Below are positions 21,001-47,700 of a stretch of 64,000 nucleotides of DNA, in pieces. Both the position numbers and the translations under genes were made by a program. The stretch lies in the NCBI GenBank assembly GCA_032718475.1, contig JAUCBJ010005935.1, forward strand, positions 62,661 to 126,660, written 5' to 3'. The stretch is from Nemertoderma westbladi. Taxonomy: Eukaryota > Animalia > Xenacoelomorpha. Each line of letters opens with the position of its first letter. The first letter of the stretch is position 1. The notes under the pieces were generated by a model. It saw nothing but the letters and a program-made list of their open reading frames with translations, did not search any database and was not told the DNA's origin.

Positions 21001-24000
21001 GCATTAAATCCAGTGCTGCATTACTGTAAATTTTAAACACTTACCTAAGCAAACCAGTTGGACAGGTTCCGAATTGGAGAGACAAAGTTTCACCTGGTTC
21101 TCGAATGTTAATTGTAACAGAGGTTGTAGCACTATTACCAAAGGAATCCTGTGATAATATATTTATGTTTGGTTTAATATTCATGTTTATATTCGGTTAA
21201 CTAATTAATATGTATAAAATGTTACAATAGTGATAATAATAATAATAATTATATAAACACATTAACACTAAAATAATTAATAATTAGTTCTTTAATACTA
21301 TGAATATCTAACCTGAGCTATGACTTGCAGAACCCTTTGACCCGGTGAGGTAAACATCTCTGAGGAACGAATGATTCCCGTTCTGAAATACAGTATGAAT
21401 TAGACAATTCAATGGCACTAACACTACATATAACACTACTGCATGTATAAAATAAACTATTATGTGAAGAAACCTTTGCACCGTAGCGGGAAGAGTGGTA
21501 GATCTATACTGGCGAATAGTCGCTTCTATAAATCAACCACTCATTTTTAAATTAACTATATTGACGCTAATATACTAAACTTAGCTTTATGTGATGGACA
21601 TAGAATAAAGATAAATAGATAAATAAATAGATGGTAATGATAGGCATAGGCACTACAGTATGACCACAGGTCCAGTAATATCACTTGCAACATGACTTAC
21701 TCTTGGTCGATTACAAAACCAGTCGCGCTTCCCGCACCGAGGCTATATGTAACATCGGCCCCAGGTTCAACTGTAACGACAGTAGCTATGGTTTCTGATG
21801 GTTCACCAGTTGCTATGGTAACGGGTAATGTTCCTTGTATAACAGAGAATGTTGGTGTGTAGGCATTTACAGTGACAACAGCAAAAGATTGACTGAAAGA
21901 TAGAAAACATATCATTCAATACACGAAGCTACCTTCGACATTGATATCGAGAATGGCAACGACTCCTACAACTATATGTCCTGCAACAAAGCCCATCCTA
22001 AGCCAGTTAAAAATTAAAAGTATTAGAATTAAACATTATCATTATTTTAATATCTAAAAGACATTAAAAATAAAAAATAAGGACAGAATTTTGTAATTAT
22101 AAATAAAATAAAGATCAGCTTCTGAAGAATTTCATTAAAATCATCCTATAGAATGAGTCAAAGGGGGGTAGGCCTCTATCTCGATTAGTGCTGCATGAGT
22201 AGCATAATTATTATTTTACTATTAAAATATCAGCCGTCACTCACCTTGGTACCACAGAACCAGTTTCTTCTGCTCTAACCAGTAATACATACTGACTCCC
22301 AGACTGTATTGCTGAGGCTTTCATTCCCTCTGTCGTTATAGAAACCTGACCTGATCCGTCGACTTCAAACAAAGTTGCACCGTTGTTGGACACAAATGGA
22401 AGGCTGTATGCGATTGGGTTGGTCTTCGTATCTTCATCGCTAGCAGAGACCTGTGAAAAACGATAAAGCAGATAATGCATGCATTATATGCTGATCCGAT
22501 GTGCTTATCAGATATGCGCCTTTCATCCACTGGGGTCGATAAAATGAGTACCAGTTAAATAACTGGGAGCAAATCTTGGGATAGGAGTAGCGCCCACCCC
22601 TACCCTCGGGTAGCAGCTATCGAAAGAGGAGCCTTCGGGTCGCCTCCGGCTTCGGCCGACTGTTTGCTTTTGCTTGTTTGCTATGCTTAGGAATGCATGC
22701 ATATAGGACCGACCTCTGAAAGTAAAGAGCAAGGAGGTACTGTACCATCATTATTAAGATTATTTAATACTGCAGCATCAAACCACACATTAAGGAAAAT
22801 CAAATCTATTGTTACTATAAATTTTGCAGCAACTAATCTCTCAGTCAATATTACCCTGTTGTATAAGGTGACTCACCTTCACTACTCCGTTCTGATTGGG
22901 TACACCGTTTGTAGTCAGGATTATTGCAGCGGTATATTGGCTGTCTGGCACGAACTTTGGAGGCGTCTCATTAATGTCTGTTACTGTAACTGCCACTTGA
23001 GTTGACTCACTTCTACCCTGGTCATCAGTGACTGTCACCTAAACAAGTACCATATGATAGATGCAGTAGTTGGTAGATTGGGGGTTGCCCTGGCCTGGGG
23101 ATATAGGTTGATTGCATGGATACTAATGGAGTGCAGTAGATTGGCCGTGTGGAGCCCTGCAGTTAGTCGCTTATTGCTATTGGTTGCATTCCCAATCATA
23201 TACTACTATTGTGCTAACAAGTTGTAACATTATTGTTTCATATTTTATGTGTATTTACCTAATTATCAGGTTGTAGGGAGTTCGGCTGGTAGTAGTAACG
23301 GGCATATAGGGGCTCTACATAGTGGTTTGCGGGTAACTCTGTCAGAGGTGGAAGGAAGTGGTATGTTGTATTGTTTTCATCATTTTTATGCATTTTATTG
23401 TTAGAGACAGAACCAAAAATACTATTGTCTCATTTTTAACAACTGAACTACACAGTGATAGGGGCGGACAATCACATAGAGCACGGAATCAATGCTGTGC
23501 TAATGTTTATAGATTGATGAAACCAAAAAAAATCTTGCACTCTCAAACCCTAAGATTGGGAAAATTGATCAGATAGGGAGTAACAAGTGGCCGCGGCCGG
23601 TAATATTCATATTATAACTAATTGTGGGGCGAGCCACGAAGTTGGCGGAGCCTTAGCGAATTGACACTGTTAGGGGGTGGGTCAATTTATGCAAATAGTT
23701 GTCGTCGTCGTCGTCGTCGTCGTTGTCGTCGTCGTCGTTGTCGTCGTCGTTACGATTTTGACATGCTAATAACTTTGTCGGATTTAAAGCTGCCAAGTTG
23801 AAAATTTGTAGGTATCAATATGAGCAAAAGTTGAGATTTTTGAGAGACTTTCAGACACCATCAGTGCAATGGTCTCCCGCTAGAGGGCCACATGTCTAAA
23901 CATTAAATGCCCTCCCATTTCTTTGCTTTTAATCCGTTTAAGCTGAAACTTGGCAGATATGTATTAGACCATTAGCTGTGACTTTCAAAGGAGGCGAATC

Positions 24001-27000
24001 CATCTGCAGTTCTCCAGTCTGCCGCTAGAGGGCCAACGTGACTATTTGCATAAATTGACCTACCCCCTAACAGTGTCAATTCGCTAAGGCTCTGCCAACT
24101 TCGTGCTGCGCGAAGTCCCCACTTCGTGTACTGTTATATATAATATATATATAATTATGAGATGAGTTTTTTTTGAGGAATAGATAATTGGATTTATAAA
24201 TGTTTACTAAAATATTGTTTCTTAAATTCAATCACACTAAATGAGCTATTCAACGAAAGATAGATGTAGCCAGTTAAAATCAGTACTCCGGTATCAAGGC
24301 CAATGCCATGACCGATATTATCTAGCACATGGGCGTGAAGAATACCAGGATTTCACTTTTCGGTCGACTTTTTATTGGAATTTTATATATTAAGAAGTTT
24401 TATTTTTTTAATTTATCTTTTATTAAGTGTTTTATAGCGCTTATTTCTGTCTTATATATAACCTATACTAATTTGTTTATTGTTTTTGTTAGATTCAGCC
24501 CTTCTTGTATCCTGTGTTTTTGGTTAAAACATGGTATTCTTCACAATGGCCATGGGGGTAACGGCAAAGTGAAATATAACGGCAGAAAGTCTGGTATTTT
24601 TCATATGGGCCGTTTACACACCGTTGTTTGCGGTTGTTTGATCACCTTGATCGATTTAAGGGGAAAGGGAAACTAACTTTATTTTTCAATATTTGTATTA
24701 ATAAATGAATACGCCTTGAAGTCGGCATGTTGTTGGCTGTTATATATTATTCTTGAGATTTGCAGGACTTTTACTTAACTCTATATTAAATTATTATAAA
24801 ATCATTTACCTGAATATTGAATGGATCGGGGGACGTCTCCTTATCTAGACTTCCCGAGAGGCTAAGAAGCACAGCTCCATTAACTTCAGTAGCAGTGAAT
24901 GGAGCGGTGCTTGGTGACACTGAGTATGTCCTATTAGGAACCTCGCCCTATAAATTAATAAATGGATGATTAAATGTTTGAAATATCGAAACAAAGTGGA
25001 CTATATAACCTACATGTTATCAAAATATATCATTGCCCCAATCTGTGTTACTTCTCACAGTCATCCTCCTGACACCGACCCCATCCCACCAGACTCGACA
25101 CGCAACCATCATTAATCCCGTTATGCGCTCTTAGCTCGTTCGTCTTTATTGTTAAATTAAAGCGTAGATGTAACTAAATGTTGCGATGGGTGTGAGAGAT
25201 AAAGAAAAAATAAATAGCGTATTCATTATATTTTTTTACTGATAATGTTCTCTATCTATCACATTTAATAATCGTTTTACTCACTTTTTTGTTTTTTGTT
25301 TTCAATTCATGTTTCAATTTTTTCCGTCTGAGAAAAACGTCAGAGAAACTTATCAAAATGACCCAAGAAACGGCCAGGCGAAAACTGTACTTTAAGGCCA
25401 TTATTCGTAAATTATACTACGTTAAGTGGTTTTAATATTCGAAGAAACGTCATGATTTTATAACGTAAGATGTTTTTTTAAATGCAAAAACATTATGCTA
25501 TTGGACTATATATAACGTATAATTTGTTTGGAGAAACCAACAAATAAGCCCATTTTTCAGAAATGTTCTAACCACATTCACCAAAATGTGATTTTTAATG
25601 CATTCAGCTAAAAGCTATATTTTTTTTTATATAGTAACCTGTTAATAAATAATTTAATTTATATCTTACAGGCATTAGTTTGTCCGCGTCTGTTAAAGTG
25701 AGTAACAGTGTCCGTTTTGTGGTCCCATCAATAAGTGTTGTCCCTAATGGGGAATTCTCCGGAATAACCCCGGCGAAAGAAGGTGAGCTGAAAACGGTTG
25801 GAAATTCGTTCACGCCGTTTATGTTGATCGAGATTTGGGCTCGACGATAGAAACCTTCTTGGTTGTTTAACGGATTCACCTCTAACGCCTAAAATATATA
25901 CAAAAAATAATTTTACAAACAGCTCGGAAATGGTGATGTATAGAAATGTAACTTTCCTATTCATTTAATATACTTGGCAGCGTGTATCTTCAGTAACAGC
26001 GGTGTATCATGCTCGACACTTGAACGGATCCGCCTCCACTTTGCAGGACATTGCTTTCGCCGTGACGAATAGCCAGTGCATAATCTTGCGCTTTGGCGGC
26101 CTCATGAAGTGAATAAGCATGGTGGACAGCCCATGACTTTCTTGAGACGCATCTTAAAGGACACTGGCCTTGAAGATGCGGATAATCTAGCGAAATTCGT
26201 GGGTGCTAGGAAGTTGTGTCGCGTAAGTTTGACGCCAAGCCGGCAAAACTTACTTCATATATACTGTATGTAATATATATAATGCCGCTGCAATGCAGCA
26301 TGCCGTCAGTCACACTTAGACATAATTCTAAATAAAATGAAGGATAATAGAGACTCTGAAACTGAAACAATATAACAATCACCAACCTTTACGTAAAACA
26401 CCATATTCTGGAATACTTCTCTGTCTATTGACTCTTTCACTTCCAACTGAATTCCACGATTTTGTGAGGAATCGGTAGAAATTTCTTTTACGCTAAAATA
26501 TCTATTGATTTGATCGGCAGTTAATCTGTTATCGTCAGTGACCCCTGTGACAATAAATAAACGGTGAACGGTAGGAATTGCTATACCGGTATACAAATTA
26601 TTGATCGGAATATTAACCTGTTACAGCGATTAGTGTAGGCCTATATAATATGTTAAACATTTATAATAATTTGTTTATGATACTTACCAGGAATTAGGGA
26701 GTAACGAATATTAACTTTTGTTTTCAAGTCAATGTCAGGATCGACCGCGTAGATAATCCTACCATCCAGATTTCCGTTTACTCCGTTTACGCTGAATGTT
26801 TCAATAGTTGTTGGACCAGATCCTTCAGTAATTGTAGCTTGGTACTTGAAGTAAAGTTCATTGGCGTCTATCAAATAAGTATAATTAATTAGCTGCATGA
26901 AAAATCAAATCATAACAATTCATAAAAAAAACTACAGTCTTAATCATTAAAAACTTATTATAACTTTTTGTTGGGCGCTGCTTTTGCAAAGTCGGCAATG

Positions 27001-30000
27001 ACGTCCAGGTGGGATCGAACTGGTGACCTCCCACCTGGGCGTCATTGCCGACTTTGCAAAAGCTGTGCCCAACAAAAAGTTATAATAATATGAAACCACT
27101 CATTCACCCAAAAACACCAATAATAAATTAAAAACTAAATAAATTAAAATATGTAATATTTGATTGAAAAATTCACAATACCTGTAAGTACGAATTATTA
27201 CAGCTACGATTTATATTTTATTTCCTTAAATTTCATTAAAGTCCATAGAAAATTATTAAAATTTTAAAATTATAATAGAAATGACGACAAGTAATGATAA
27301 TAAAATTGAATGAAATTTTATTGGCATTGTAATAGTATTAAGTATTTTATTCAGTTAATATATAATATAATACTAATATAAAGAATTCGATTATCACTGT
27401 TTTTTTCCACTTTTCTTATAAAATACATATATATAGTTTAGGTCATGATACAGTACTGACATATATTAGTTATCACTTATCAGTGTAAATATATACACTG
27501 TTCATTTTATGTGGTGCCTTCGCGCAGTCTAATCACTTTTACCCCTAGCGGTAGACTCTGAAAGTCTTTCAAATATATCACTTTTAGTCCTAGTAATGCC
27601 TACAAATTTTAAATTTGTTAGTTTTAGATCCGACAGAGTTATTATCCAGTAAAAATCGTAAGGACGACATGACAATAACAAAATGTTGTTGTTGGTGTTG
27701 TTCATAGGTGATTGGGCGCAAGATACAAACTGCTAATGTCTACGAACCTGAGCATGATGCTAGTGATGTCAGAGAACCAGTTGTGGCGCAAGGAACAAAC
27801 TGAGGCCTTTGGTCGTTCTCATCGACTATATTTACCGTCAACGTAGCTGTGCTCGTCAAGGAATTGGCACTGATCTTCGGGTTATCCTGTAGAGAAATAT
27901 TAGAACCAATAGATTTCATCTGTGTCCATATTTGTTTTATATATATAGACGTTTGTTTCATATATATTACGTATATATATGCGGATATATCAGTATTTAT
28001 GACAATAAATAATTGCAATTAACGATAACCGTATAAATAGTATTAATTATTGAACTAGTAATAAGTATACGGTATTTCCGTAAATCAGGTAGTTTAATTA
28101 GTTGCCATGGCGGCTTACCTTGGCCTCAATCGTAATCTTATACAGCGAAGTTTTCTCATAATCCGGAGAATTGGGTTCGACCAATTTAATCACACCAGTT
28201 TCGGAATCAATCGAGAAAAAATTCGGTTCGTCATTTCCGGCGTTGTCCTTTACCGCGGTAATGGAGTATGTAACCTCATTGTTAGGAGATGTAGCATCAT
28301 TGTCTGTAGCCTGAACTGTAAAGACCTGCGTGAGGATGGTGGGGTCGGCGTTCTCCGGTAGATTAGTCTCGTAGGGGGTCCCAATGAATACCGGTTCATT
28401 GTCGTTCACATCAAGTAGATGGAACCGGATAATATATTCTAGCTGTGAAAAAATAAAAGGGCAGTAAAATATGTGTTTAAACTTCTGCATTCTTTATTGC
28501 TACAGTACCTGCTGGTCTGATTAGAGATTTGAGATATAATACTGCATTGTTGCTACAGTACCTGCTGGTTCGATTCTAGATTGGTGATATAATGCTGCAT
28601 TGCTGCTACAGTACCGGCTGTGCGATTGGAGATTTGTGTTATAAATCTGAATTGTTGCTACCGTACCTGTTGGTCCGATTGGAGATTAGTTATATAATGC
28701 TGCATTGTTGCTACCGTACCTGCTGGTCCGATTGGAAATTAGTGATATAAAGCGGATCAGCAGATATGGTAGCAACAATGTATTGTTGCTACCATATCTG
28801 CTGATCCGATTGGAGATTAGTAATATAAGGCTGCATTGTTGCTACAGTTCCTGCTGGTTCGATTGGAGATTACTGATATAAAGCTACATGTGGAAGCGCT
28901 ATCGGCGCCCGGTCCCGGATCCACGGCCACGCACTATCCCGCTCGAGGGGTGAGCTGGAGAAGACTGAAGTGAAACTAGCTGCAGTATACCAGTATATTG
29001 TGTATTGAGATACATGAATAACAAATAATGATATGATACAATCAGACAATGAAACTAATAACGAACTACCTACAAAACATGACTGACAACCCTACACCGG
29101 TAAGTCATCTCAATAACTAAACTGAATGATAACTGCTCACTGCGCCCTGCCCCCAGGACTATATCCCTGACAGCTACCGTACAACCAGCTGTTCACACCC
29201 TAGGTGCTAACAAGATACTACTATATTATACCTACTTAACCTATACAATACATACTAATCAGTCCAATTATACACCATCCCATAATACAATATCACATCC
29301 CCCCTTCTTAAAAAAAACTCGCCCACGAGTTTCTAGAACGCACAAACTACAAACCCCAAGTCTAATGACTACATCGACAAGTAAAGTCTACCTCAACGGC
29401 AGTATAGATACTGTATATGAAGCACGATACCAACAATACATTCAACTAGCCTAAGGCCAATAATATCTAAATCGAAATTTCGTGCTGCATGTATCGTAAG
29501 CCAGTATGACTAAAGAATAACACGTACAACTCAATGAGTAACCAAATAACACTATATCAAGCATATTGCAATCTATAAATCGCACCGTAAGTAACCGACC
29601 ATAGTACAATCCATAAAATGTGTCACTGCCACAATAAATAAAGGCTATATAAGTAAATAATTAATACGTGTATCTATCACATGAAAATGTATCCATACAG
29701 TATCTATCATAAACATGTATCCATCCATACAGTATCTATCTATCCGTATCTTATGTAATAATAATACGTAATGACGTAACAAAAATATACAAAAAAATAT
29801 ATATGTTGGAGTTATGTACATAAGGTAAATAATAATACATACAGAATAGAGAATACTCTACAAAATGTACATAACTGAGGCACAAAATATCTCGTGGGCG
29901 AATAACGGGTGAGAGCCGAGCAATGGAACGGAATTTAAAAAAAATCACAATATCTAAATAATTCAGGATAACAATTTTTTTTCCAAACAAAAGTTATTCA

Positions 30001-33000
30001 TTGTTAATAAATGCAATTTATCTATGTAGCCATGGTAACCAGCAAACAGTCAAGTCACATCGACTACGTCTCTATAATTTGCGTCAACGGTCAACAGTCG
30101 CTATCGTCACCGTCGTAGTCGTCCCCACTGTCATTCCCCCTACCTGTATCATCTCCCGTGGAGTTACTTTCTTCCCTATAGTATGGTTTTAAGTCCTTCA
30201 CATTTACAATAATAAGTCGAGAACGTGGATTTGGTTTTCCCGATTTTCCCAACAGTTTAATGGCATAACTTGATTTACCAACCTGATCAACAATAGCATA
30301 AGGACCCCTAAACCTGAAGCTCAGCTTCGTATTCTTACCTTTGGTCGTCCTATCATAGTATAATACAGACTGCCCCTTAGTGTAGGTTCGAATGTTACTG
30401 CGTTGGCGCTTCCCCAGCTTACCGTCGTGGTATTGTTTCTGTTTAACCTGTGTAAGCCTAAGAGCTTCCCTGGCTATCCCATGGGCCCGCTCCAAACGAA
30501 ACCTTAATTCGTCTGCGAATGTTGCTTCATCTGCTAGCAAGCTGTACGGCCGGGCTATCTGCGTGTCTACTTGTGTTGTCGCCTGTCGCCCATACATTAA
30601 AGAGTGTTCCTACCTAATCTGCTGGTCCGATTCTAGATTGGTGATATAATGCTGCATTGTTGCTACAATACCGGCTGGTTCGATTGGAGATTGGTGATAT
30701 AATGCTGCATTGTTGCTACAGTATCTGCTGGACCGATTCTAGATTGGTGATATAATGGTGCATTGTTGCTACAGTAACGGCTGGTTCGATTGGAGATTGG
30801 TGATATAATGCTGCATTGTTGCTAAAGTATCTGCTGGCCCGATTGGAAATTAGTAATATAAGGCTGCATTGTTGCTACCGTACGTGCTGGTCCGATTGGA
30901 GATTAGTGATCTAAAGCTACATTGTTGCTACGGTATCTGCTGGTCCGGTTCTAGATTGGTAATATAATGCTGCATTGTTGCTACAGTAACGGCTGGCCCG
31001 ATTGGAAATTAGTAATATAAGGCTGCATTGTTGCTACCGTACGTGCTGGTCCGATTGGAGATTAGTGATATAAAGCTACATTGTTGATACCGTATCTGCT
31101 GGTCCGGTTCTAGATTGGTAATATAATGCTGCATTGTTGCTACAATACCGGCTGGTTCGATTGGAGATTGGTGATATAATGCTGCATTGTTTCTACAGTA
31201 CCGGCTGGTTCGTTTGGAGATTGGTGATATAATGCTGCATTTTTGCTACAGTATCTTATGGTTTGATTGGATATTGGTGATATAATGCTGCATTTTTGCT
31301 ACAGTATCTTATGGTTCGATTGGATATTGGTGATATAATGCTGTATTGTTGCTACAGTATCCGCTGGCCCGATTGGAAATTAGTAATATAAGGCTGCATT
31401 GTTGCTACCGTACGTGCTGGTCCGATTGGAGATTAGTGATATAAAGCTACATTGTTGATACCGTATCTTCTGGTCCGGTTCTAGATTGGTAATATAATGC
31501 TGCATTGTTACTACAATACCCGCTGGTTCGATTGGAGATTGGTGATATAATGCTGCATTGTTTCTACAGTACCGGCTGGTTTGATTGGAGATTTGTGATA
31601 TAATGCTGCATTTTTGCTACAGTATCTTATGGTTCGATTGGATATTGGTGATATAATGCTGCATTTTGCTACAGTATCTTATGGTTCGATTGGATATTGG
31701 TGATATAATGCTGTATTGTTGCTACAGTATCTGCTGGCCCGATTGGAAATTAGTATTATAAGGCTGCATTGTTGCTACCGTACGTGCTGGTCCGATTGGA
31801 GATTAGTGATATAAAGCTACATTGTTGATACCGTATCTGCTGGTCAGGTTCTAGATTGGTAATATAATGCTGCATTGTTGCTACAATACCGGCTGGTTCG
31901 ATTGGAGATTGGTGATATGATGCTGCATTGTTTCTACAGTACCGGCTGGTTCGATTGGAGATTGGTGATATAATGCTGCATTGTTGCTACAGTATCTTCT
32001 GGCCCGATTGGAAATTAGTAATATAAGGCTGCATTGTTGCTATCGTATCTGCTGGTCCGGTTCTAGATTAGTAATATAATGCTGCATTGTTGCTACAGTA
32101 ACGGCTGGTTCGATTGGAGATTGGTGATATAATGCTGCATTGTTGCTACAGTATCTGCTGGCCCGATTGGAAATTAGTAATATAAGGCTGCATTGTTGCT
32201 ACCGTACGTGCTGGTCCAATTGGAGATTAGTGATATAAAGCTACATTGTTGCTACCGTATCTGCTGGTCCGGTTCTAGATCGGTAATATAAGGCTGCATT
32301 GTTGCTACAGTAACTACTGGATCGATTGGAGATTAGTGATATAAAGCTACATTGTTGATACCGTATCTGCTGGTCCGGTTCTAGATCGGTAATATAATGC
32401 TGCATTGTTGCTACAATACCGGCTGGTTCGATTGGAGATTGGTGATATAATGCTGCATTTTTGCTACAGTATCTTATGGCTCGATTGGATATTGGTGATA
32501 TAATGCTGCATTGTTTCTACAGTACCGGCTGGTTGGATTGGAGATTGGTGATATAATGCTGCATTATTTCTACAGTACCGGCTGGTTCGATTGGAGATTG
32601 GTGATATAAAGCTGCATTTTTGCTACAGTATCTTATGGTTCGATTGGATATTGGTGATATAATGCTGCATTTCTACAGTACCGGCTGGTTCGATTGGAGA
32701 TTGGTGATATAATGCTGCATTGTTGCTACAGTATCTGCTGGCCCGATTGGAAATTAGTAATATAAGGCTGCATTGTTGCTATCGTATCTGCTGGTCCGGT
32801 TCTAGATTGGTAATATAATGCTGCATTGTTGCTACAGTAACGGCTGGTTCGATTGGAAATTGGTGATATAATGCTGCATTGTTGCTACAGTATCTGCTGG
32901 CCCGATTGGAAATTAGTAATATAAGGCTGCATTGTTGCTACCGTACGTGCTGGTCCGATTGGAGATTAGTGATGTAAAGCTACATTGTTGCCACCGTATC

Positions 33001-36000
33001 TGCTGATCCGATTGGAGATTAGTAATATAAGGCTGCATTGTTGCTACAGTACCTGTTGGATCGATTGGAGATTAGTGATCTAAAGCTACATTGTTGCTAC
33101 GGTATCTGCTGGTCCGGTTCTAGATTGGTAATATAAAGCTACATTGTTGCTACCGTATCTGCTGGTCCAATTCTAGATTGGTGATATAATGCTGCATTGT
33201 TGCTACAGTAACGGCTGGTTCGATTGGAGATTGGTGATATAATTCTGCATTGTTGCTACCGTACGTGCTGGTCCGATTGGAGATTAGTGATGTAAAGCTA
33301 CATTGTTGCCACCGTATCTGCTGATCCGATTGGAGATTAGTAATATAAGGCTGCATTGTTGCTACAGTACCTGTTGGATCGATTGGAGATTAGTGATCTA
33401 AAGCTACATTGTTGCTACGGTATCTGCTGGTCCGGTTCTAGATTGGTAATATAAAGCTACATTGTTGCTACCGTATCTGCTGGTCCAATTCTAGATTGGT
33501 GATATAATGCTGCATTGTTGCTACAGTAACGGCTGGTTCGATTGGAGATTGGTGATATAATTCTGCATTGTTGCTACCGTACGTGCTGGTCCGATTGGAG
33601 ATTAGTGATGTAAAGCTACATTGTTGCCACCGTATCTGCTGATCCGATTGGAGATTAGTAATATAAGGCTGCATTGTTGCTACAGTACCTGTTGGATCGA
33701 TTGGAGATTAGTGATCTAAAGCTACATTGTTGCTACGGTATCTGCTGGTCCGGTTCTAGATTGGTAATATAATGCTGCATTGTTGCTACCGTACGTGCTG
33801 GTCCGATTGGAGATTAGTGATGTAAAGCTACATTGTTGCCACCGTATCTGCTGATCCGATTGGAGATTAGTAATATAAGGCTGCATTGTTGCTACAGTAC
33901 CTGTTGGATCGATTGGAGATTAGTGATCTAAAGCTACATTGTTGCTACGGTATCTGCTGGTCCGGTTCTAGATTGGTAATATAAAGCTACATTGTTGCTA
34001 CCGTATCTGCTGGTCCAATTCTAGATTGGTGATATAATGCTGCATTGTTGCTACAGTAACGGCTGGTTCGATTGGAGATTGGTGATATAATTCTGCATTG
34101 TTGCTACCGTACGTGCTGGTCCGATTGGAGATTAGTGATGTAAAGCTACATTGTTGCCACCGTATCTGCTGATCCGATTGGAGATTAGTAATATAAGGCT
34201 GCATTGTTTCTACAGTACCTGTTGGATCGATTGGAGATTAGTGATCTAAAGCTACATTGTTGCTACGGTATCTGCTGGTCCGGTTCTAGATTGGTAATAT
34301 AAAGCTACATTGTTGCTACCGTATCTGCTGGTCCAATTCTAGATTGGTGATATAATGCTGCATTGTTGCTACAGTAACGGCTGGTTCGATTGGAGATTGG
34401 TGATATAATTCTGCATTGTTGCTACAGTATCTGCTGGCCCGATTGGAAATTAGTAATATAAGGCTGCATTGTTGCTATCGTATCTGCTGATCCGGTTCTA
34501 GATCGGTAATATAAGGCTGCATTGTTGCTACAGTACCTGCTGGATCGATTGGAGATTAGTGATATAAAGCTACATTGTTGACACCGTATCTGCTGGTCCG
34601 GTTCTAGATTGGTAATATAATGCTGCATTGTTTCTACAGTACCGGCTGGTCCGATTGGAGATTAGTGATATAAAGCTACATTGTTGCTACCGTATCTGCT
34701 GGTCCGGTTCTAGATCGGTAATATAATGCTGCATTGTTGCTACAATACCGGCTGGTTCGATTGGAGATTGGTGATATAATGCTGCGGTTCGATTGGAGAT
34801 TGGTGATATAATGCTGCATTGTTGCTACAGTATCTGCTGGCCCGATTGGAAATTAGTAATATAAGGCTGCATTGTTGCTATCGTATCTGCTGGTCCGGTT
34901 CTGGATCGGTAATATAATGCTGCATTGTTGCTACAATACCGGCTGGTTGGATTGGAGATTGGTGATATAATGCTGCATTATTTCTACAGTACCGGCTGGT
35001 TCGATTGGAGATTGGTGATATAAAGCTGCATTTTTGCTACAGTATCTTATGGTTCGATTGGATATTGGTGATATAATGCTGCATTTCTACAGTACCGGCT
35101 GGTTCGATTGGAGATTGGTGATATAATGCTGCATTGTTGCTACAATACCGGCTGGTTCGATTGGAGATTGGTGATATGATGCTGCATTGTTTCTACAGTA
35201 CCGGCTGGTTCGATTGGAGATTGGTGATATAATGCTGCATTGTTGCTACAGTATCTTCTGTCCCGATTGGAAATTAGTAATATAAGGCTGCATTGTTGCT
35301 ATCGTATCTGCTGGTCCGGTTCTAGATTAGTAATATAATGCTGCATTGTTGCTACAGTAACGGCTGGTTCGATTGGAGATTGGTGATATAATGCTGCATT
35401 GTTGCTACAGTATCTGCTGGCCCGATTGGAAATTAGTAATATAAGGCTGCATTGTTGCTACCGTACGTGCTGGTCCAATTGGAGATTAGTGATGTAAGGC
35501 TGCATTGTTGCTACAGTACCTGCTGGATCGATTGGAGATTAGTGATATAAAGCTACATTGTTGCTACCGTATCTGCTGGTCCGGTTCTAGATCGGTAATA
35601 TAAGGCTGCATTGTTGCTACAGTAACTACTGGATCGATTGGAGATTAGTGATATAAAGCTACATTGTTGATACCGTATCTGCTGGTCCGGTTCTAGATCG
35701 GTAATATAATGCTGCATTGTTGCTACAATACCGGCTGGTTCGATTGGAGATTGGTGATATAATGCTGCATTTTTGCTACAGTATCTTATGGTTCGATTGG
35801 ATATTGGTGATATAATGCTGCATTGTTTCTACAGTACCGGCTGGTTGGATTGGAGATTGGTGATATAATGCTGCATTATTTCTACAGTAGCGGCTGGTTC
35901 GATTGGAGATTGGTGATATAAAGCTGCATTTTTGCTACAGTATCTTATGGTTCGATTGGATATTGGTGATATAATGCTGCATTTCTACAGTACCGGCTGG

Positions 36001-39000
36001 TTCGATTGGAGATTGGTGATATAATGCTGCATTGTTGCTACAGTATCTGCTGGCCCGATTGGAAATTAGTAATATAAGGCTGCATTGTTGCTATCGTATC
36101 TGCTGGTCCGGTTCTAGATTGGTAATATAATGCTGCATTGTTGCTACAGTAACGGCTGGTTCGATTGGAAATTGGTGATATAATGCTGCATTGTTGCTAC
36201 AGTATCTGCTGGCCCGATTGGAAATTAGTAATATAAGGCTGCATTGTTGCTACCGTACGTGCTGGTCCGATTGGAGATTAGTGATGTAAAGCTACATTGT
36301 TGCCACCGTATCTGCTGATCCGATTGGAGATTAGTAATATAAGGCTGCATTGTTGCTACAGTACCTGTTGGATCGATTGGAGATTAGTGATGTAAAGCTA
36401 CATTGTTGCTACAGTATCTGCTGGCCCGATTGGAAATTAGTAATATAAGGCTGCATTGTTGCTACCGTACGTGCTGGTCCGATTGGAGATTAGTGATGTA
36501 AAGCTACATTGTTGCCACCGTATCTGCTGATCCGATTGGAGATTAGTAATATAAGGCTGCATTGTTGCTACAGTACCTGTTGGATCGATTGGAGATTAGT
36601 GACCTAAAGCTACATTGTTGCTACCGTATCTGCTGGTCCAATTCTAGATTGGTGATATAATGCTGCATTGTTGCTACAGTAACGGCTGGTTCGATTGGAG
36701 ATTGGTGATATAATTCTGCATTGTTGCTACAGTATCTGCTGGCCCGATTGGAAATTAGTAATATAAGGCTGCATTGTTGCTATCGTATCTGCTGATCCGG
36801 TTCTAGATCGGTAATATAAGGCTGCATTGTTGCTACTGTACCTGCTGGATCGATTGGAGATTAGTGATATAAAGCTACATTGTTGACACCGTATCTGCTG
36901 GTCCGGTTCTAGATTGGTAATATAATGCTGCATTGTTTCTACAGTACCGGCTGGTCCGATTGGAGATTAGTGATATAAAGCTACATTGTTGCTACCGTAT
37001 CTGCTGGTCCGGTTCTAGATCGGTAATATAATGCTGCATTGTTGCTACAATACCGGCTGGTTCGATTGGAGATTGGTGATATAATGCTGCATTTTTGCTA
37101 CAGTACCGGCTGGTTCGATTGGAGATTGGTGATATAATGCTGCATTGTTGCTACAGTATCTGCTGGCCCGATTGGAAATTAGTAATATAAGGCTGCATTG
37201 TTGCTATCGTATCTGCTGGTCCGGTTCTGGATCGGTAATATAATGCTGCATTGTTGCTACAATACCGGCTGGTTGGATTGGAGATTGGTGATATAATGCT
37301 GCATTATTTCTACAGTACCGGCTGGTTCGATTGGAGATTGGTGATATAAAGCTGCATTTTTGCTACAGTATCTTATGGTTCGATTGGATATTGGTGATAT
37401 AATGCTGCATTTCTACAGTACCGGCTGGTTCGATTGGAGATTGGTGATATAATGCTGCATTGTTGCTACAGTATCTGCTGGACCGATTGGAAATTAGTAA
37501 TATAAGGCTGCATTGTTGCTATCGTATCTGCTGGTCCGGTTCTAGATTGGTGATATAATGCTGCATTGTTGCTACAGTAACGGCTGGTTCGATTGAAGAT
37601 TGGTGATATAATGCTGCATTGTTGCTACAGTATCTGCTGGCCCGATTGGAAATAAGTAATATAAGGCTGCATTGTTACTACCGTACGTGCTGGTCCGATT
37701 GGAGATTAGTGATGTAAAGCTACATTGTTGCCACCGTATCTGCTGATCCGATTGGAGATTAGTAATATAAGGCTGCATTGTTACTACAGTACCTGCTGGA
37801 TCGATTGGAGATTAGTGATCTAAAGCTACATTGTTGCTACCGTATCTGCTGATCCGATTCTAGATTGGTGATATAATGCTGCATTGTTGCTACAGTAACG
37901 GCTGGTTCGATTGGAGATTGGTGATATAATGCTGCATTGTTGCTACAGTATCTGCTGGCCCGATTGGAAATTAGTAATATAAGGCTGCATTGTTGCTACC
38001 GTACGTGCTGGTCCGATTGGAGATTAGTGATATAATGCTACATTGTTGATACCGTATCTGCTGGTCCGGTTCTAGATTGGTAATATAATGCTGCATTGTT
38101 GCTACAATACCGGCTGGTTCGATTGGAGATTGGTGATATAATGCTGTATTGTTTCTACAGCACCGGCTGGTTCGATTGGAGATTGGTGATATAATGCTGC
38201 ATTTTTGCTACAGTATCTTATGGTTCGATTGGATATTGGTGATATAATGCTGCATTGTTTCTACAGTACCGGATGGTCCGATTGGAGATTAGTGATATAA
38301 AGCTACATTGTTGCTACCGTATCTGCTGGTCCGGTTCTAGATCGGTAATATAATGCTGCATTGTTGCTACAATACCGGCTGGTTCGATTGGAGATTGGTG
38401 ATATAATGCTGCATTTTTGCTACAGTATCTTATGGTTCGATTGGATATTGGTGATATAATGCTGCATTGTTTCTACAGTACCGGCTGGTTCGATTGGAGA
38501 TTGGTGATATAATGCTGCATTGTTGCTACAGTATCTGCTGGCCCGATTGGAAATTAGTAATATAAGGCTGCATTGTTGCTATCGTATCTGCTGGTCCAGT
38601 TCTAGATTGGTAATATAATGCTGCATTGTTGCTACAATACCGGCTGGTTGGATTGGAGATTGGTGATATAATGCTGCATTTTTTCTACAGTACCGGCTGG
38701 TTCGATTGGAGATTGGTGATATAATGCTGCATTTTTGCTACAGTATCTTATGGTTCGATTGGATATTGATGATATAATGCTGCATTGTTTCTACAGTACC
38801 GGCTGGTTCGATTGGAGATTGGTGATATAATGCTGCATTGTTGCTACAGTACCGGCTGGTCCGATTGGAGATTAGTGATATAAAGCTACATTGTTGCTAC
38901 CGTATCTGCTGGTCCGGTTCTAGGTCGGTAATATAATGCTGCATTGTTGCTACAATATCGGCTGGTTCGATTGGAGATTGGTGATATAATGCTGCATTGT

Positions 39001-41631
39001 TTCTACAGTACCGGCTGGTTCGATTGGAGATTGGTGATATAATGCTGCATTGTTGCTACAGTATCTGCTGGCCCGATTGGAAATTAGTAATATAAGGCTG
39101 CATTGTTGCTATCGTATCTGCTGGTCCGGTTCTAGATTGGTAATATAATGCTGTATTGTTGCTACAATACCGGCTGGTTGGATTGGAGATTGGTGATATA
39201 ATGCTGCATTGTTTCTACAGTATCTGCTGGCCCGATTGGAAATTAGTAATATTACGCTGCATTGTTGCTACCGTATCTTCTGGTCCGGTTCTAGATTGGT
39301 AATATAATGCTGCATTGTTGCTACAATACCAGCTGGTTCGATTGCAGATTGGTGATATAATGCTGCATTGTTTCTACAGTACCGGCTGGTTCGAATGGAG
39401 ATTGGTGATATAATGCTGCATTTTTGTTACAGTATCTTATGGTTCGATTGGATATTGGTGATATAATGCTGCATTGTTTCTACAGTACCGGCTGGTTCGA
39501 TTGGAGTTTGGTGATATAATGCTGCATTGTTGCTACAGTATCTGCTGGCCCGATTGGAAATTAGTAATATAAGGCTGCATTGTTGCTATCGTATCTGCTG
39601 TCCGGTTCTAGATTGGTGATATAATACTGCATTGTTGCTAAAGCAGTACCTGCTGGTTCGATTGGAGATTAGTGAGATAAAGCTGCATTGTTGCTACCGT
39701 ACGTGCTGGTCCGATTGGAGATTAGTAATATAATGCTGCATTGCTGCTACTGTACGTGCTGGTCCGATTGGAGATTAGTGATATAAAGCTGAATTGTTGT
39801 TACAGTACCTGCTGGTTCGATTGGAAATTATATAGTTATATAAAGCTGCATTGTTGCTACCGTACGTGTTGGTCCGATTGGAGATTAGTAATATAATGCT
39901 GCATTGCTGCTACTGTACGTGCTGGTCCGATTGGAGATTAGTGATATAAAGCTGAATTGTTGTTACAGTACCTGCTGGTTCGATTGGAAATTATATAGTT
40001 ATATAAAGCTGCATTGTTGCTACCGTACGTGTTGGTCCGATTGGAGATTAGTGATATAAAGCTGCATTGTTGCTACCGTACCTGCTGGTTCGATTGGAGA
40101 TTGGTGCATATGAGCTTCATTGTTGCAGTCGGAGGTACCGCTTCACGGTCCGGGGCCTTGAACATTTCGATCCGTTGTTCTCCAGCCTTTATTCGAATGT
40201 GCTGCAATAAATAAATAATCATTAAATTAAAGAGGTGCCAAAATATTACAAACCAATCAATACCGGTATATGATCTGATAAATATTATCGTTTAGTCGTA
40301 TCATGCATTGCAATGGCCTTCATTTCAAAGGAAACAAAATATTGAAAGTATTTTAGATTTCTGTAAGAAACACTGAATATTAAATATACACGGAAAAACA
40401 AATGTATCACACCCTAAAACAGTTCAGAGTATTTCTGAAAGCCCAAAAACTATCTTTGGACGATAAAATTAGTGAAACTCATCCAGCCGCTGCTGGTTTC
40501 AAAGCATCACAGCGCGCAAAGAAACGGAAACTTATGTTATGAGATTCTCCGTGGTATTACTAGTACAGGCCTACACCGATTCCGGAAACCTGGCGCCACT
40601 ATCACTATAACGCTATTTCAGCTCCAACTTGTCACAACTTTTGCCACAAGCAGGGCAGGTATCTTTCTACAATCAACCTGATGCTAATACTGTACGTGTA
40701 CATGGCTATTCGAAACAAGATACCGACGGTTATCAAGTATGTAGTAGAACAGTAGGTACTTTAAAACATAGGAGTTACGTCCATAGTAAGACACGAAGTG
40801 GGGCCTTCGCGCAGCACGTGACTTAATTATACTTAGTTATACATTTCGCCCTCTAGCGGCAGACTGGAGGACTCCAGACCGTTTACTGCCCACCAAAGAC
40901 TCAGGCCGACTTCTACTACATATCTGCTACGTTTCAGCTTGAACGGATCATAAATAACGAGATGGGAGAAAGATTTCACTTTCAAACATTTCGCCCTCTA
41001 GCGGCAGACTGAAGAACTGCACACGGATTAGCCTTCAATTCAATTCAATTCAATTCCTTCTTTCAAAGTCACAGCTAATGGTCTAGTACATATCTGCCAA
41101 ATTTCAGCATAAATGGATTAAAAGCAAAGAAATGGGAGGACATTTAACGTTTAGACATGTGGCCCTCTAGCAGGAGACTATTGCTCTGATGGTGTCTGAA
41201 AGTCTCTCAAACGTCTCAACTTTAGCTCATATTGATACCTACAAATTTTCAACTTGGCAGCTTTAAATCCGACAAAGTTATTAGCATGTCAAAATCGTAA
41301 CGACGACAACGATTTCACTTTCAGACCTTTGGCCCTCTAGCGGCAGACTGGAGAACTGCAGATGGATTCGCCTCCTTTGAAAGTCACAGCTAATGGTCTA
41401 ATACATATCTGCCAAGTTTCAGCTTAAACGGATTAAAAGCAAATAAATGGGAGGGCATTTAATGTTTAGACATGTGGCCCTCTAGCGGGAGACCATTGCA
41501 CTGATGGTGTCTGAAAGTCTCTCAAAAATCTCAACTTTTGCTCATATTGATACCTACAAATTTTCAACTTGGCAGCTTTAAATCCGACAAAGTTATTAGC
41601 ATGTCAAAATCGTAACGACGACGACGACGAC

Positions 41632-41718
<87 letters not shown>

Positions 41719-44700
41719 AACTATTTGCATAAATTGACCCACCCCCTAACAGTGTCAATTCGCTAAGGCTCCGCCAACTTCGTGGCTCGCCCCACAAGGT
41801 TTATCTAAAATAGCAATCTAGACCTATTTTGTGTTTCGTCTCTAGAACCGTCGTACAGTATTACAGTAGCTCTCTGTCTGTATGGATTAGTACTCTACCT
41901 CCGTTGCATCGGCGTCGCTTGCTGTATCATCGTGTACCAACTTGAGTGTAAAGTCTGTGTCTAGAATTCCAGATAATTCGAAGTTATCGCCGATATCCCT
42001 TGGAACATTGCCGTTCTCGTTCACATTAACTTCCAACTCGGCTCCTCCACTAAACGGCGACCCCTGTTCCGCGAAGCAAGGCAGCTGAGCTGGAATATAA
42101 TAACAAAAAAGTGAAAATCACAATGTATAGAGGGGTGGGGGCTAATAGGTCTATAGATCACACTTCCTTGAAATCCAAAAGTTATGTCTGGGGTAGTAGA
42201 AATTAACCTAATTCTTCGAGTAGTAAATTGTCTATTAATCCCTGTATCAGATGTTTTTATTTTGAAAAATATTTCAATACCTCTTATCTTCAATGTTCTG
42301 TATTCCTATTGTAACTTAATATTGTTAACCAGAATACACCCCCTATTTATATGGGGTTCCAAACATGTCAAAAACAATTTTGCATTTGAATTTCAAACAT
42401 TGGGGTGGGGGTAAGGAGCCAATTAGAGAGATGGTACTCTACTCATAGTGAGCAGAAGCGATAATAACCATAATTATTTGGCCTACTCCAGTTGTCAAAT
42501 TTAATAATATGCGTATATATAACGATTTTGTTTTTGATCTTGGGTCTTCAGTTCAGATTGTGTTAATGTTAAGACACGTGCGTGGGGCGTCGCCCCACGC
42601 AAGCAGGCTTTGCATGAGCAAGTTCGATTTGATCTGAAGTCAAAAGTTTGAGAGGTAATTGCCCGTAACTTTAAAAAATATTGTAAATTTTTCTCTAGTA
42701 TGAACCCATACAAAATTTGGTTGATAATGGTTAAAATCTTCAAAAGTTATTTACGAATGAATTTTTCATTACAGACAGACAAACAGACGGACGGACAGAC
42801 AGACGGACGTGATATTTTGCCCTATTTACTAATTATAATTGTGCGCTAAGGCTCGCCCTGACAGCGTGGCTCGCCCCACGGTAAACTATTAATTGAAACT
42901 CATCATATTTATTATTACACATACATAAAAACATCATCATCTGATTTTTCCCAGAACCCACCCAGCCCCCTTCGGCCAAATCCCGTAACTACTTGAAATT
43001 CAGCGCATGGTGGATTTCGGAGAATGGAGAACTAACCCAAAGATCCAATACGGCAGGGTAAATCAACCAAGGGAAAATCAACCCAAGCAACCCAATGGTT
43101 GCGAACTTTGTTCCAATGGTTGCGAACTTTGTTCCAATGGTTGCGAACTTTGTTCCAATGAGAGTAGTCCAACTGCGAACATTGTTCCAATGGTTGCGAA
43201 CTTTGTTCCAATGGTTGCGAACTTAGTTCCAATGGTAGCGAACTTAGTTTCAATGGTTGCGAACTTTGTGCCAATGGTTGCGAACTTTGTTCCAATGGTT
43301 GCGAACTTTGTTCCAATGGTCGCGAACTTAGTTCTAATGGTTGCGAACTTTGTTCCAATGGTTGCGAACTTTGTTCCAATGAGAGTAGTCCAACTGCGAA
43401 CATTGTTCCAATGGTTGCGAACTTAGTTTCAATGGTTGCGAACTTTGTGCCAATGGTTGCGAACTTTGTTCCAATGGTTGCGAACTTTGTGCCAATGGTT
43501 GCGAACTTTGTTCCAAAGGGTTGCGAACTTTGTTCCAATGGTAGCGAACTTTGTTCCAATGGTCGCGAACTTAGTTCTAATGGTTGCGAACTTTGTTCCA
43601 ATGGTTGCGAACTTTGTTCCAATGAGAGTAGTCCAACTGCGAACATTGTTCCAATGGTTGCGAACTTTGTTCCAATGGTTGCGAACTTAGTTCCAATGGT
43701 AGCGAACTTAGTTTCAATGGTTGCGAACTTTGTGCCAATGGTTGCGAACTTTGTTCCAATGGTTGCGAACTTTGTTCCAATGGTCGCGAACTTAGTTTCA
43801 ATGGTTGCGAACTTTGTGCCAATGGTTGCGAACTTTGTTCCAATGGTTGCGAACTTAGTTCCAATGGTTGCGAACTTAGTTCCAATGGTTGCGAACTTTG
43901 TGCCAATGGTTGCGAACTTTGTTCCAATGGTTGCGAACTTTGTTCCAATGAGAGTAGTCCAACTGCGAACATTGTTCCAATGGTTGCGAACTTTGTTCCA
44001 ATGGTTGCGAACTTAGTTCCAATGGTAGCGAACTTAGTTTCAATGGTTGCGAACTTTGTGCCAATGGTTGCGAACTTTGTTCCAATGGTTGCGAACTTTG
44101 TTCCAATGGTCGCGAACTTAGTTCTAATGGTTGCGAACTTTGTTCCAATGGTTGCGAACTTTGTTCCAATGAGAGTAGTCCAACTGCGAACATTGTTCCA
44201 ATGGTTGCGAACTTAGTTTCAATGGTTGCGAACTTTGTGCCAATGGTTGCGAACTTTGTTCCAATGGTTGCGAACTTTGTGCCAATGGTTGCGAACTTTG
44301 TTCCAATGGTTGCGAACTTTGTTCCAATGGTAGCGAACTTTGTTCCAATGGTCGCGAACTTAGTTCTAATGGTTGCGAACTTTGTTCCAATGGTTGCGAA
44401 CTTTGTTCCAATGAGAGTAGTCCAACTGCGAACATTGTTCCAATGGTTGCGAACTTTGTTCCAATGGTTGCGAACTTAGTTCCAATGGTAGCGAACTTAG
44501 TTTCAATGGTTGCGAACTTTGTGCCAATGGTTGCGAACTTTGTTCCAATGGTTGCGAACTTTGTTCCAATGGTCGCGAACTTAGTTTCAATGGTTGCGAA
44601 CTTTGTGCCAATGGTTGCGAACTTTGTTCCAATGGTTGCGAACTTAGTTCCAATGGTTGCGAACTTAGTTCCAATGGTTGCGAACTTTGTGCCAATGGTT

Positions 44701-47700
44701 GCGAACTTTGTTCCAATGGTTGCGAACTTTGTTCCAATGAGAGTAGTTCAACTGCGAATATTGTTCCAATGGTCGCGAACTTAGTTCCAATGGTTGCGAA
44801 CTTAGTTCCAATGGTAGCGAACTTAGTTTCAATGGTTGCGAACTTTGTGCCAATGGTTGCGAACTTTGTACCAATGGTTGCGAACATTGTTCCAATGGTT
44901 GCGAACTTAGTTCCTATGGTTGCGAACTTAGTTCCAACTTAGTTCCACATGTGATAATGCAAGCTAAGGTGATCAGGACGCAACCTGTCGATTCTCTATA
45001 AAGATCATCCCACACCGTAGTCTTTACACCATACGTGATGTAAGTACTTTGTAAGTACGTTAAGGTGGTGTATGTAAGTTATTTAGTGTGCCTGAGATGT
45101 AAGTACGTTAGTGTGGTGTATGTAAGTTATTTAGTGTGCCTGAGATGTAAGTACGTTAAGGTGGTGTATGTAAGTTATTTAGTGTGTTATAGATGTGAGT
45201 ACTTTAGTGTAGTGTATGTAAGTTATTTAGTGTGCCTGAGATGTAAGTACGTTAAGGTGGTGTATGTAAGTTATTTAGTGTGCCTGAGATGTAAGTATGT
45301 TAAGGTGGTGTATGTAAGTTATTTTGTGTGTTATAGATGTGAGTACTTTAGTGTGGTGTATGTAAGTTATTTAGTGTGCCTGAGATGTAAGTACGTTAAG
45401 GTGGTGTATGTAAGTTATTTAGTGTACCTGAGATGTAAGTACGTTAATGTGGTGTATGTATGTTATTTAGTGTGCCTGAGATGTAAGTACGTTAAGGTGG
45501 TGTATGTAAGTTATTTAGTGTGCCTGGGATGTAAGTACGTTAAGGTGGTGTATGTAAGTTATTTAGTGTGTTATAGATGTGAGTACTTTAGTGTGGTGTA
45601 TTTAAGTTATTTAGTGTGCCTGAGATGTAAGTACGTTAAGGTGGTGTATGTAAGTTATTTAGTGTGCCTGAGATGTAAGTACGTTAAGGTGGTGTATGTA
45701 AGTTATTTAGTGTGCCTGGGATATAAGTACGTTAAGGTGGTGTATGTAAGTTATTTAGTGTGTTATAGATGTGAGTACTTTAGTGTGGTGTATTTAAGTT
45801 ATTTAGTGTGCCTGAGATGTAAGTACGTTAAGGTGGTGTATGTAAGTTATTTAGTGTGCCTGAGATGTAAGTACGTTAAGGTGGTGTATGTAAGTTATTT
45901 AGTGTGCCTGAGATGTAAGTACGTTAAGGTGGTGTATGTAAGTTATTTAGTGTGCCTGAGATGTAAGTACGTAAGTTATTTAGTGTGCCTGAGATGTAAG
46001 TACGTTAAGGTGGTGTATGTAAGTTATTTATTGTGCTATAGATGTGAGTACTTTAGTGTGGTGTATTTAAGTTATTTAGTGTGCCTGAGATGTAAGTATG
46101 TTAAGGTGGTGTATGTAAGTTATTTAGTGTGCCTGAGATGTAAGTACGTTAAGGTGGTGTATGTAAGTTATTTAGTGTGCCTGGGATGTAAGTACGTTAA
46201 GGTGGTGTATGTAAGTTATTTAGTGTGTTATAGATGTGAGTACTTTAGTGTGGTGTATTTAAGTTATTTAGTGTGCCTGAGATGTAAGTACGTTAAGGTG
46301 GTGTATGTAAGTTATTTAGTGTGCCTGAGATGTAAGTACGTTAATGTGGTGTATGTAAGTTATTTAGTGTGCCTGAGATGTAAGTACGTTAAGGTGGTTT
46401 ATGTAAGTTATTTAGTGTCCCTGAGATGTAAGTACGTTAAGGTGGTGTATGTACGTTATTTAGTGTGCCTGAGATGTAAGTACGTTAGTGTGGTGTATGT
46501 AAGTTATTTAGTGTTCCTGAGATGTAAGTACGTTAAGGTGGTGTATGTAAATTATTTAGTGTGCCTGAGATGTAAGTACGTTAGTGTGGTGTATGTAAAT
46601 TATTTAGTGTGCCTGAAATGTAAGTACGTTAGTGTGGTGTATGTAAGTTATTAAGTGTGCCTGAGATGTAAGTACGTTAAGGTGGTGTATGTAAGTTATT
46701 TAGTGTGCCTGAAATGTAAGTACGTTAAGGTGGTGTATGTTAGTTATTTAGTGTGCCTGAGATGTAAGTACGTTAGTGTGGTGCAGGTAAGTTATTTAGT
46801 GTGCCTGAGATGTAAGTACGTTAGTGTGGTGTATGTAAGTTATTTAGTGTGCCTGAGATGTAAGAACGTTAGTGTGGTGTATGTAAGTTATTTAGTGTGC
46901 CTGAGATGTAAGTACGTTAAGGTGGTGTATGTAAGTTATTTAGTGTGCCTGAGATGTAAGTACGTTAAGGTGGTGTATGTAAGTTATTTAGTGTGCCTGA
47001 GATGTAAGTACGTTAAGGTGGTGTATGTAAGTTATTTAGTGTGCCTGAGATGTAAGTACGTTAAGGTGATGTATGTAAGTTATTTAGTGTGCCTGAGATG
47101 TAAGTACGTTAAGGTGGTTTATGTAAGTTATTTAGTGTGCCTGAGATGTAAGTACGTTAAGGTGGTTTATGTAAGTTATTTAGTGTGCCTGAGATGTAAG
47201 TACGTTAAGGTGGTTTATGTAAGTTATTTAGTGTGCCTGAGATGTAAGTACGTTAATGTGGTGTATGTAAGTTATTTAGTGTGCCTGAGATGTAAGTACG
47301 TTAGTGTGGTGTATGTAAGTTATTTAGTGTGCCTGAGATGTAAGTACGTTAAGGTGGTGTATGTAAGTTATTTAGTGTGCCTGAGATGTAAGTACGTTAA
47401 GGTGGTGTATGTAAGTTATTTAGTGTGCCTGAGATGTAAGTACGTTAAGGTGGTTTATGTAAGTTATTTAGTGTGCCTGAGATGTAAGTACGTTAGTGTG
47501 GTGTATGTAAGTTATTTAGTGTGCCTGAGATGTAAGTACGTTAAGGTGGTGTATGTACGTTATTTAGTGTGCCTGAGATGTAAGTACGTTAGTGTGGTGT
47601 ATGTAAGTTATTTAGTGTGCCTGAGATGTAAGTACGTAAGTGTGGTGCAGGTAAGTTATTTAGTGTGCCTGAGATGTAAGTACGTTAGTGTGGTGTATGT

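Follow-up and report, generated by a model that had tools for sequence, protein, structure and literature searches.

Minisatellites that straddle an exon-intron boundary have already been described and named, as the human F7 type of boundary minisatellite and as the amphioxus 'mirages' (PMC1557585; PMC3087553), and the arrangement reported below is of this kind. The 37-bp variable number tandem repeat (VNTR) of human F7 intron 7 is listed together with repeats in 6-16, CBS, LAMIN B2 and PDGF, with units of 37-100 bp and 5-25 units per array; F7, LAMIN B2 and PDGF use the first donor only; in F7 it is the one furthest upstream in a series of identical donors (PMC1557585). In the amphioxus mirages regular splicing is unaffected as far as seen (PMC3087553). 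We describe such an array in Nemertoderma westbladi (Xenacoelomorpha), in a stretch of 64,000 nt (contig JAUCBJ010005935.1 of assembly GCA_032718475.1, positions 62,661 to 126,660 of the forward strand; hereafter the window, whose numbering is used throughout). The array is carried by a minus-strand cadherin gene, where a 53-bp minisatellite makes up 85% of an intron of 11,639 nt.

The minisatellite most probably arose by tandem duplication of an exon end together with its splice donor and would then have expanded as unselected DNA; the first donor is predicted to be still in use. The exon 40201-40082 (minus strand) terminates in ATMKLICTNLQSNQQ, and GTACGGTA comes directly after it. The features of the locus, in the order of transcription, are:

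41899-42089, minus strand: coding exon upstream of the founding one, with the beginning of EC1; its frame is open in the 16-exon model of the gene.
40082-40201, minus strand: coding exon, 120 nt long and of phase 0-0, whose last 45 nt supply the exonic portion of the founding unit and code for the EC1 strand that has the Cys.
40074-40126, minus strand: founding 53-bp unit, 45 nt of exon and 8 nt of intron, with the donor CAG/GTACGG (G at +1 is 40081; donor score 8.6).
30617-40073, minus strand: main intronic array of 179 tiled units, the first 8 older and all with GT, the middle recently homogenised.
28889-30616, minus strand: 5'-truncated remnant of a long terminal repeat (LTR) retrotransposon, 1,728 nt, sense orientation, consisting of a 12-nt filler, a piece of open reading frame (ORF), a purine tract and an LTR.
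28497-28888, minus strand: distal 7 units and a final GCAA, with the only two exact donor copies (28719 and 28666) and the last donor-like site (28508).
28750-28811, no strand assigned: fold-back, an inverted copy of the unit junction with 30-nt arms, 97% complementary, and a 2-nt loop.
28443-28496, minus strand: non-repeat intron tail of 54 nt, with a T-rich tract and the acceptor CAG, not significantly unit-like (shuffle p 0.15-0.27).
28119-28442, minus strand: next coding exon, 324 nt, which completes EC1 (DVNDNEP) and covers most of EC2 (Pfam PF00028, E 3.5e-12).

The intron divides into 9,853 nt derived from the array, the 1,728 nt of LTR remnant (15%) and 58 nt past the last full unit. 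Tiling yields 187 units, partial ones included; one is tied to the exon and the other 186, of which 98 are distinct, are intronic, in agreement with the approximately 185 copies in 11.6 kb given by a preliminary description of this DNA. That description had the array run from the exon to about 55 bp before the acceptor. Both ends hold, since the array begins at 40126, in the last 45 nt of the exon, and stops 54 nt short of the next acceptor, but the array is interrupted by the LTR remnant. Tandem Repeats Finder (TRF) returns the 53-bp period in three segments, 30617-40126 (178.9 copies), 28782-28889 (2.0) and 28497-28750 (4.8). The unit had also been equated with the last 45 nt of the exon plus 8 nt of donor; the founding unit does span the boundary in this way, but the other units only resemble it, with a mean ungapped identity of 75% (best 81%) to the exon-anchored unit and of 89% to their own majority. 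Nearest-neighbour identity is 0.99 within the middle 171 units as against 0.92 in the first 8 and 0.91 in the last 6, and higher-order repeats of 4, 6, 10 and 16 units occur in the middle and in neither end. Units at the opposite ends of the array are partly alike. A homogenised centre between divergent ends is what would be expected if a small, old array had recently grown from its middle. About 48% of the window is tandem repeat, which makes a large array less surprising at this place.

The gene model comprises 16 exons, starts at 42089 and reaches the first base of the window; it encodes 6,845 aa with no stop codon, and all of its 15 introns are bounded by GT and AG. Searched alone, exon 41899-42089 has no Pfam or database match, and a scan further upstream for a signal-peptide exon returned no candidates; the exon numbering used here is that of the preliminary description, in which the exon that founds the array is exon 3. 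When 40082 is joined to 28442, the product aligns without gaps to Danaus plexippus Cad99C across the junction (E 4e-22, 359 columns). The Cys encoded before the junction stands 18 residues from the D[IV]ND motif after it (C-x18-D[IV]ND), the spacing found in five of the six Cad99C-like proteins checked; the sixth returned no C-to-D[IV]ND motif. The splice from 40082 to 28442, as previously claimed, is thus likely to be the one used, given the open model and the Cad99C-like spacing. Orthology of the gene to Cad99C is not established, and Fat-type repeats score equally high.

The same gene contains a single open exon (18093-1, minus strand) of at least 18,093 nt or 6,031 codons, which runs off the window. 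Cadherin domains separate its two arrays of a 399-bp unit, which encodes 133 Thr/Pro/Cys-rich residues and is present in 18.9 and 20.1 copies; the 133-residue repeat has no Pfam match over the cut-off. This giant exon may be odder than the donor minisatellite itself.

Exon 3 retains the Cys and the spacing of Cad99C-like proteins, and the unit is therefore likely to derive from it. Three exon-specific motifs, one of them including the Cys codon, are present in none of the 186 intronic units. These shared differences could be read the other way round: a dispersed satellite or mobile minisatellite may have landed in the gene and had its first unit exonised, so that the exon end would derive from the repeat. 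The intronic units do share characters absent from the exon, and other, unrelated intronic minisatellites are present in the window. A random satellite is, however, unlikely to have supplied 15 codons that give a Cys at exactly the Cad99C-like spacing, and the depth over the unit, given below, is roughly that of the local units, with no foreign flank among the contigs listed. We consider exonisation of a foreign repeat very unlikely.

Within the 64,000-nt window the unit has no match longer than 11 nt outside the array. Sequencing runs were used to look beyond the window; three of the six contain the stretch and are recorded as probable DNA, and samples S1 and S2 may both be the source of the window. 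In S1 and S2 one contig begins in the intron before the exon, crosses the exon and enters the first unit without a change of depth, and another connects a unit with the tail; among the unit-bearing contigs listed for these samples, the only non-repeat flanks are this exon and this tail, with no foreign flank. Short-read contigs collapse the array. Over the unit, summed depth peaks at 207 (run X1), 165 (X3) and 74 (X2) times single copy; this sum of contig depths, which is not a copy number, differs almost threefold among the three runs and is comparable in magnitude to the local number of units. A dispersed element 700 nt away reaches 10,258 (X1), 3,898 (X3) and 11,428 (X2) times single copy. 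Run X5 covered dispersed repeats only and run X4 part of the LTR element only, and both are uninformative on the array. The contigs joining unit to exon and unit to tail, with a depth near the local copy number, support the earlier proposal of local amplification of exon end and donor. Copies of a dispersed high-copy element that has a (GTC)n tract lie at 40771-41720 and 23620-24130, and at 40771-40900 the summed depth is thousands of times single copy.

Slippage offers a plausible first step. The word GCAA stands on both sides of the ancestral unit, as had been noted before, and an overlap of 4 nt or more is expected by chance in about 2% of cases. A single duplication of exon end and donor would have followed from slippage between GCAA words 53 nt apart. 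Not being under coding constraint, the intronic copy would have diverged first, losing the Cys codon, and been amplified afterwards; that it changed before amplifying is suggested by the fact that all 186 intronic units share the changes. The middle of the array may then have been enlarged recently by unequal exchange while both ends remained old, and an LTR element would have inserted near the 3' end, followed by loss of its 5' part and of some units.

The length of the intron before this growth is less certain. The last donor-like GT (28508) does lie 66 nt before the acceptor end at 28443, as reported previously, and the ancestral intron may have been exactly these 66 nt, with approximately 175-fold growth. 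The GCAA words at both ends of the 53-nt period are consistent with this, as are the normal acceptor and the tail, which is not significantly unit-like, and the join of unit to tail is present in both samples. An intron of 66 nt would, however, be less than half the length of the shortest of the 14 others compared (143-1,771 nt, median 462). The deletion at the LTR remnant shows that sequence has also been lost from the intron, of which 15% is transposon, the tail holds a 7-nt word of the unit 4 nt out of register and may start with a decayed partial unit, and the cadherin and metagenome matches searched include no ortholog. We put an ancestor of exactly 66 nt at somewhat less than an even chance. 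The tail as a whole was also tried as a decayed unit, which was not supported (p 0.40 local, 0.15-0.27 anchored). Intron gain through a duplicated exonic AG/GT, with both splice sites coming from the unit, is not what is seen here; the acceptor lies in the non-repeat, T-rich tail.

The LTR remnant, probably of Ty3/Gypsy-like type, comprises an ORF piece that may encode the integrase C-terminus (30609-30091), a purine tract (29309) and a 409-nt LTR of the form TG...CA (29297-28889). Against Pfam PF24626 (Tf2-type SH3) the ORF piece gives E 8.3e-7 and 29.5 bits, just under the cut-off of 30. Only a single LTR is present, without a second one or a target-site duplication, and the 5' end of the remnant joins a cut unit through the 12-nt filler. 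Contigs matching it have about 7-21 times single-copy depth and run into other sequence past both ends, which indicates that the remnant belongs to a small family and that its 5' part was lost here. Among the S1 and S2 contigs listed there is no unit-LTR junction contig. The three top-scoring GT sites of the intron and its top-scoring internal AG fall in the remnant, outside the array. A cryptic exon candidate also lies there (29625-29586, minus strand), with an acceptor score of 11.7 and a donor-like site of 6.0 located 40 nt on; its inclusion would shift the frame. In the fold-back at 28750-28811 the inverted arm complements the donor region of the units; the fold-back itself is situated immediately ahead of the two exact donor copies. 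Fold-backs of this type come from template switching.

Few of the repeated donors remain intact. Among the 186 intronic units, 80 keep GT, 18 keep AG/GT and two keep the exact 9-nt donor (28719 and 28666, both more than 11 kb from the exon). Scored with a matrix built from the gene's other 14 donors, the real site and the two exact copies reach 8.6, one unit reaches 5.6 and the other 77 GT units at most 3.5; the eight units nearest the exon are likewise at or below 3.5. The earlier picture of many units keeping donors, an array of decoys, is overstated, since 184 of the 186 units either have lost GT or reach a lower score than the real donor. Splicing at any later donor would include the in-frame TAG located right after the first donor, as already observed in the preliminary description; the translation reads QQVR-stop. 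The exon would be defined by its T-rich acceptor and the closest donor, 120 nt on, and later donors would take in the TAG. Transcripts spliced at later donors would likely be removed by nonsense-mediated decay (NMD), so that the protein would stay unchanged.

It had been proposed that the CAG/GT units could act as recursive splice points, the intron being removed stepwise. CAG/GT is found in 18 of the 186 units, distributed along the intron, and recursive sites are reported in introns of such size (median 3.4 kb in a set of 100; PMC10156609). The likeness to published recursive sites lies in YAG/GT words within a multi-kb intron; the difference is that a pyrimidine run is missing here, whereas the published search motif requires five pyrimidines within 4 nt of YAG (PMC10156609). 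The minimal motif Y5-N0-4-YAGGT (PMC10156609) is matched by none of the 27 YAGGT words of the intron. All 18 AG/GT units have three or four T at -20 to -5, the 16 real acceptors have 6-12, and the two ranges do not overlap. As acceptors the units score -5.6 to -12.8, the real sites -1.9 to 15.7 (leave-one-out, with a matrix of only 16 sites), and the +5 G is missing in 16 of the 18. As no unit has the T-rich tract of the real acceptors, the proposal is not supported, and we regard recursive splicing through the units as scarcely credible.

The decay of the donors might itself carry a signal. If units with a weakened donor amplified without cost, turnover of the array would have been filtered by splicing, and the array would record selection against decoys, each amplified lineage bearing a change that weakens an originally working donor; splicing fidelity would then decide which intronic repeat variants expand. 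Parsimony changes were counted on trees made with the 44 columns on either side of the donor; among 27 re-phased windows the 9-nt donor window has the highest count (49 changes, median 27), and windows not touching it show 13-32. Its top-variant frequency (0.15) is the lowest among 45 windows, at least five different donor changes are common (at -2, at -1, two at +1 and at +5), and the two exact donors sit more than 11 kb from the exon. When distinct alleles are counted, however, the excess falls short of significance (binomial P 0.105-0.145; hypergeometric P 0.06-0.33), and neither units nor windows are independent. Selection should act most strongly close to the exon, yet the eight nearest units all have GT, against 67 of the 171 middle units, and +2 T and +3 A are nearly invariant. 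The count of two exact donors in 186 units against 12 expected is not used as evidence, as it presumes that the +5 G of the exon is ancestral. Selection against decoy donors therefore appears to us unlikely, and expansion as unselected DNA remains the preferred explanation.

Several points weigh against local duplication with continued use of the first donor. The support for the 40082-28442 splice is homology only, and the summed depths are subject to the limits given with them. No ortholog was found that would show the direction from exon to repeat or the ancestral intron length by comparison: exon 4 retrieved 283 generic cadherins (at most 48% identity among the 120 listed), exon 2 gave none from 27 candidates, the giant-exon region matched Fat-type cadherins at 22-37% identity, and 16 metagenome loci had cadherin domains of a generic kind but matched neither exons 2-3 nor the 53-bp unit. 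No part of the unit has changed more than the donor window, which is unexpected under pure drift and is a weak hint. Finally, first-donor preference was demonstrated in mammalian cells, not in this animal, and 6-16 and CBS also use two downstream pseudo-donors (PMC1557585).

Elsewhere in the window, an unbroken peptidase M16 frame of 1,072 codons (51590-54808, plus strand; Pfam PF16187, E 6.9e-67) lies opposite the cadherin gene and is possibly nested in its first intron. Two further minisatellites lie upstream of exon 42089 and touch no modelled exon, one of 21 bp with 75 copies (43092-44937) and one of 48 bp with approximately 65 copies and GTAAGT on the plus strand (45050-48188). Broken pieces of a DDE transposase (Pfam PF13843) are found at 58279-59129 (minus strand).

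A literature search that left out most subscription journals returned no paper that treats this locus or reports an array so large, which is no proof of absence. The intron satellites of the Drosophila Y genes kl-3 and kl-5 are reportedly simple and not derived from the gene's own exon. Like the present intron, those of kl-3 and kl-5 consist largely of tandem repeat, at megabase scale as against 11.6 kb (PMC6508621). In boundary repeats of human segmental duplications, minisatellite expansion is expansion-biased and lengthens both exons and introns; they average 30-bp units, 4 copies and 160 bp, and some create introns, whereas here the intron has kept its own acceptor and has only lengthened (PMC2812944).

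The amphioxus mirages (Adh3, BflGb6, BflGb9) are likewise boundary tandem duplications in an invertebrate, in which many units, but not all, carry splice signals (PMC3087553). Their interior is homogenised with the edge units excluded, and the same is seen here (0.99 as against 0.92 and 0.91); in BflGb6 the units number 3 and 6 and measure 150-160 bp, whereas the present array extends over 9.85 kb (PMC3087553). In the human F7 type the first unit straddles the exon-intron boundary and the donor is repeated head to tail down the intron, as in Nemertoderma. The F7 pseudo-sites are identical, in contrast to the 186 units here, with 98 distinct units, two exact donors and an LTR remnant inside, and donor use was measured in F7 and is predicted from sequence here (PMC1557585). 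An intron can thus be almost wholly filled by copies of its own exon end with the reading frame apparently kept. What stands out is size, the 186 units being approximately seven times the longest published case found (25 pseudo-sites in human 6-16; PMC1557585).

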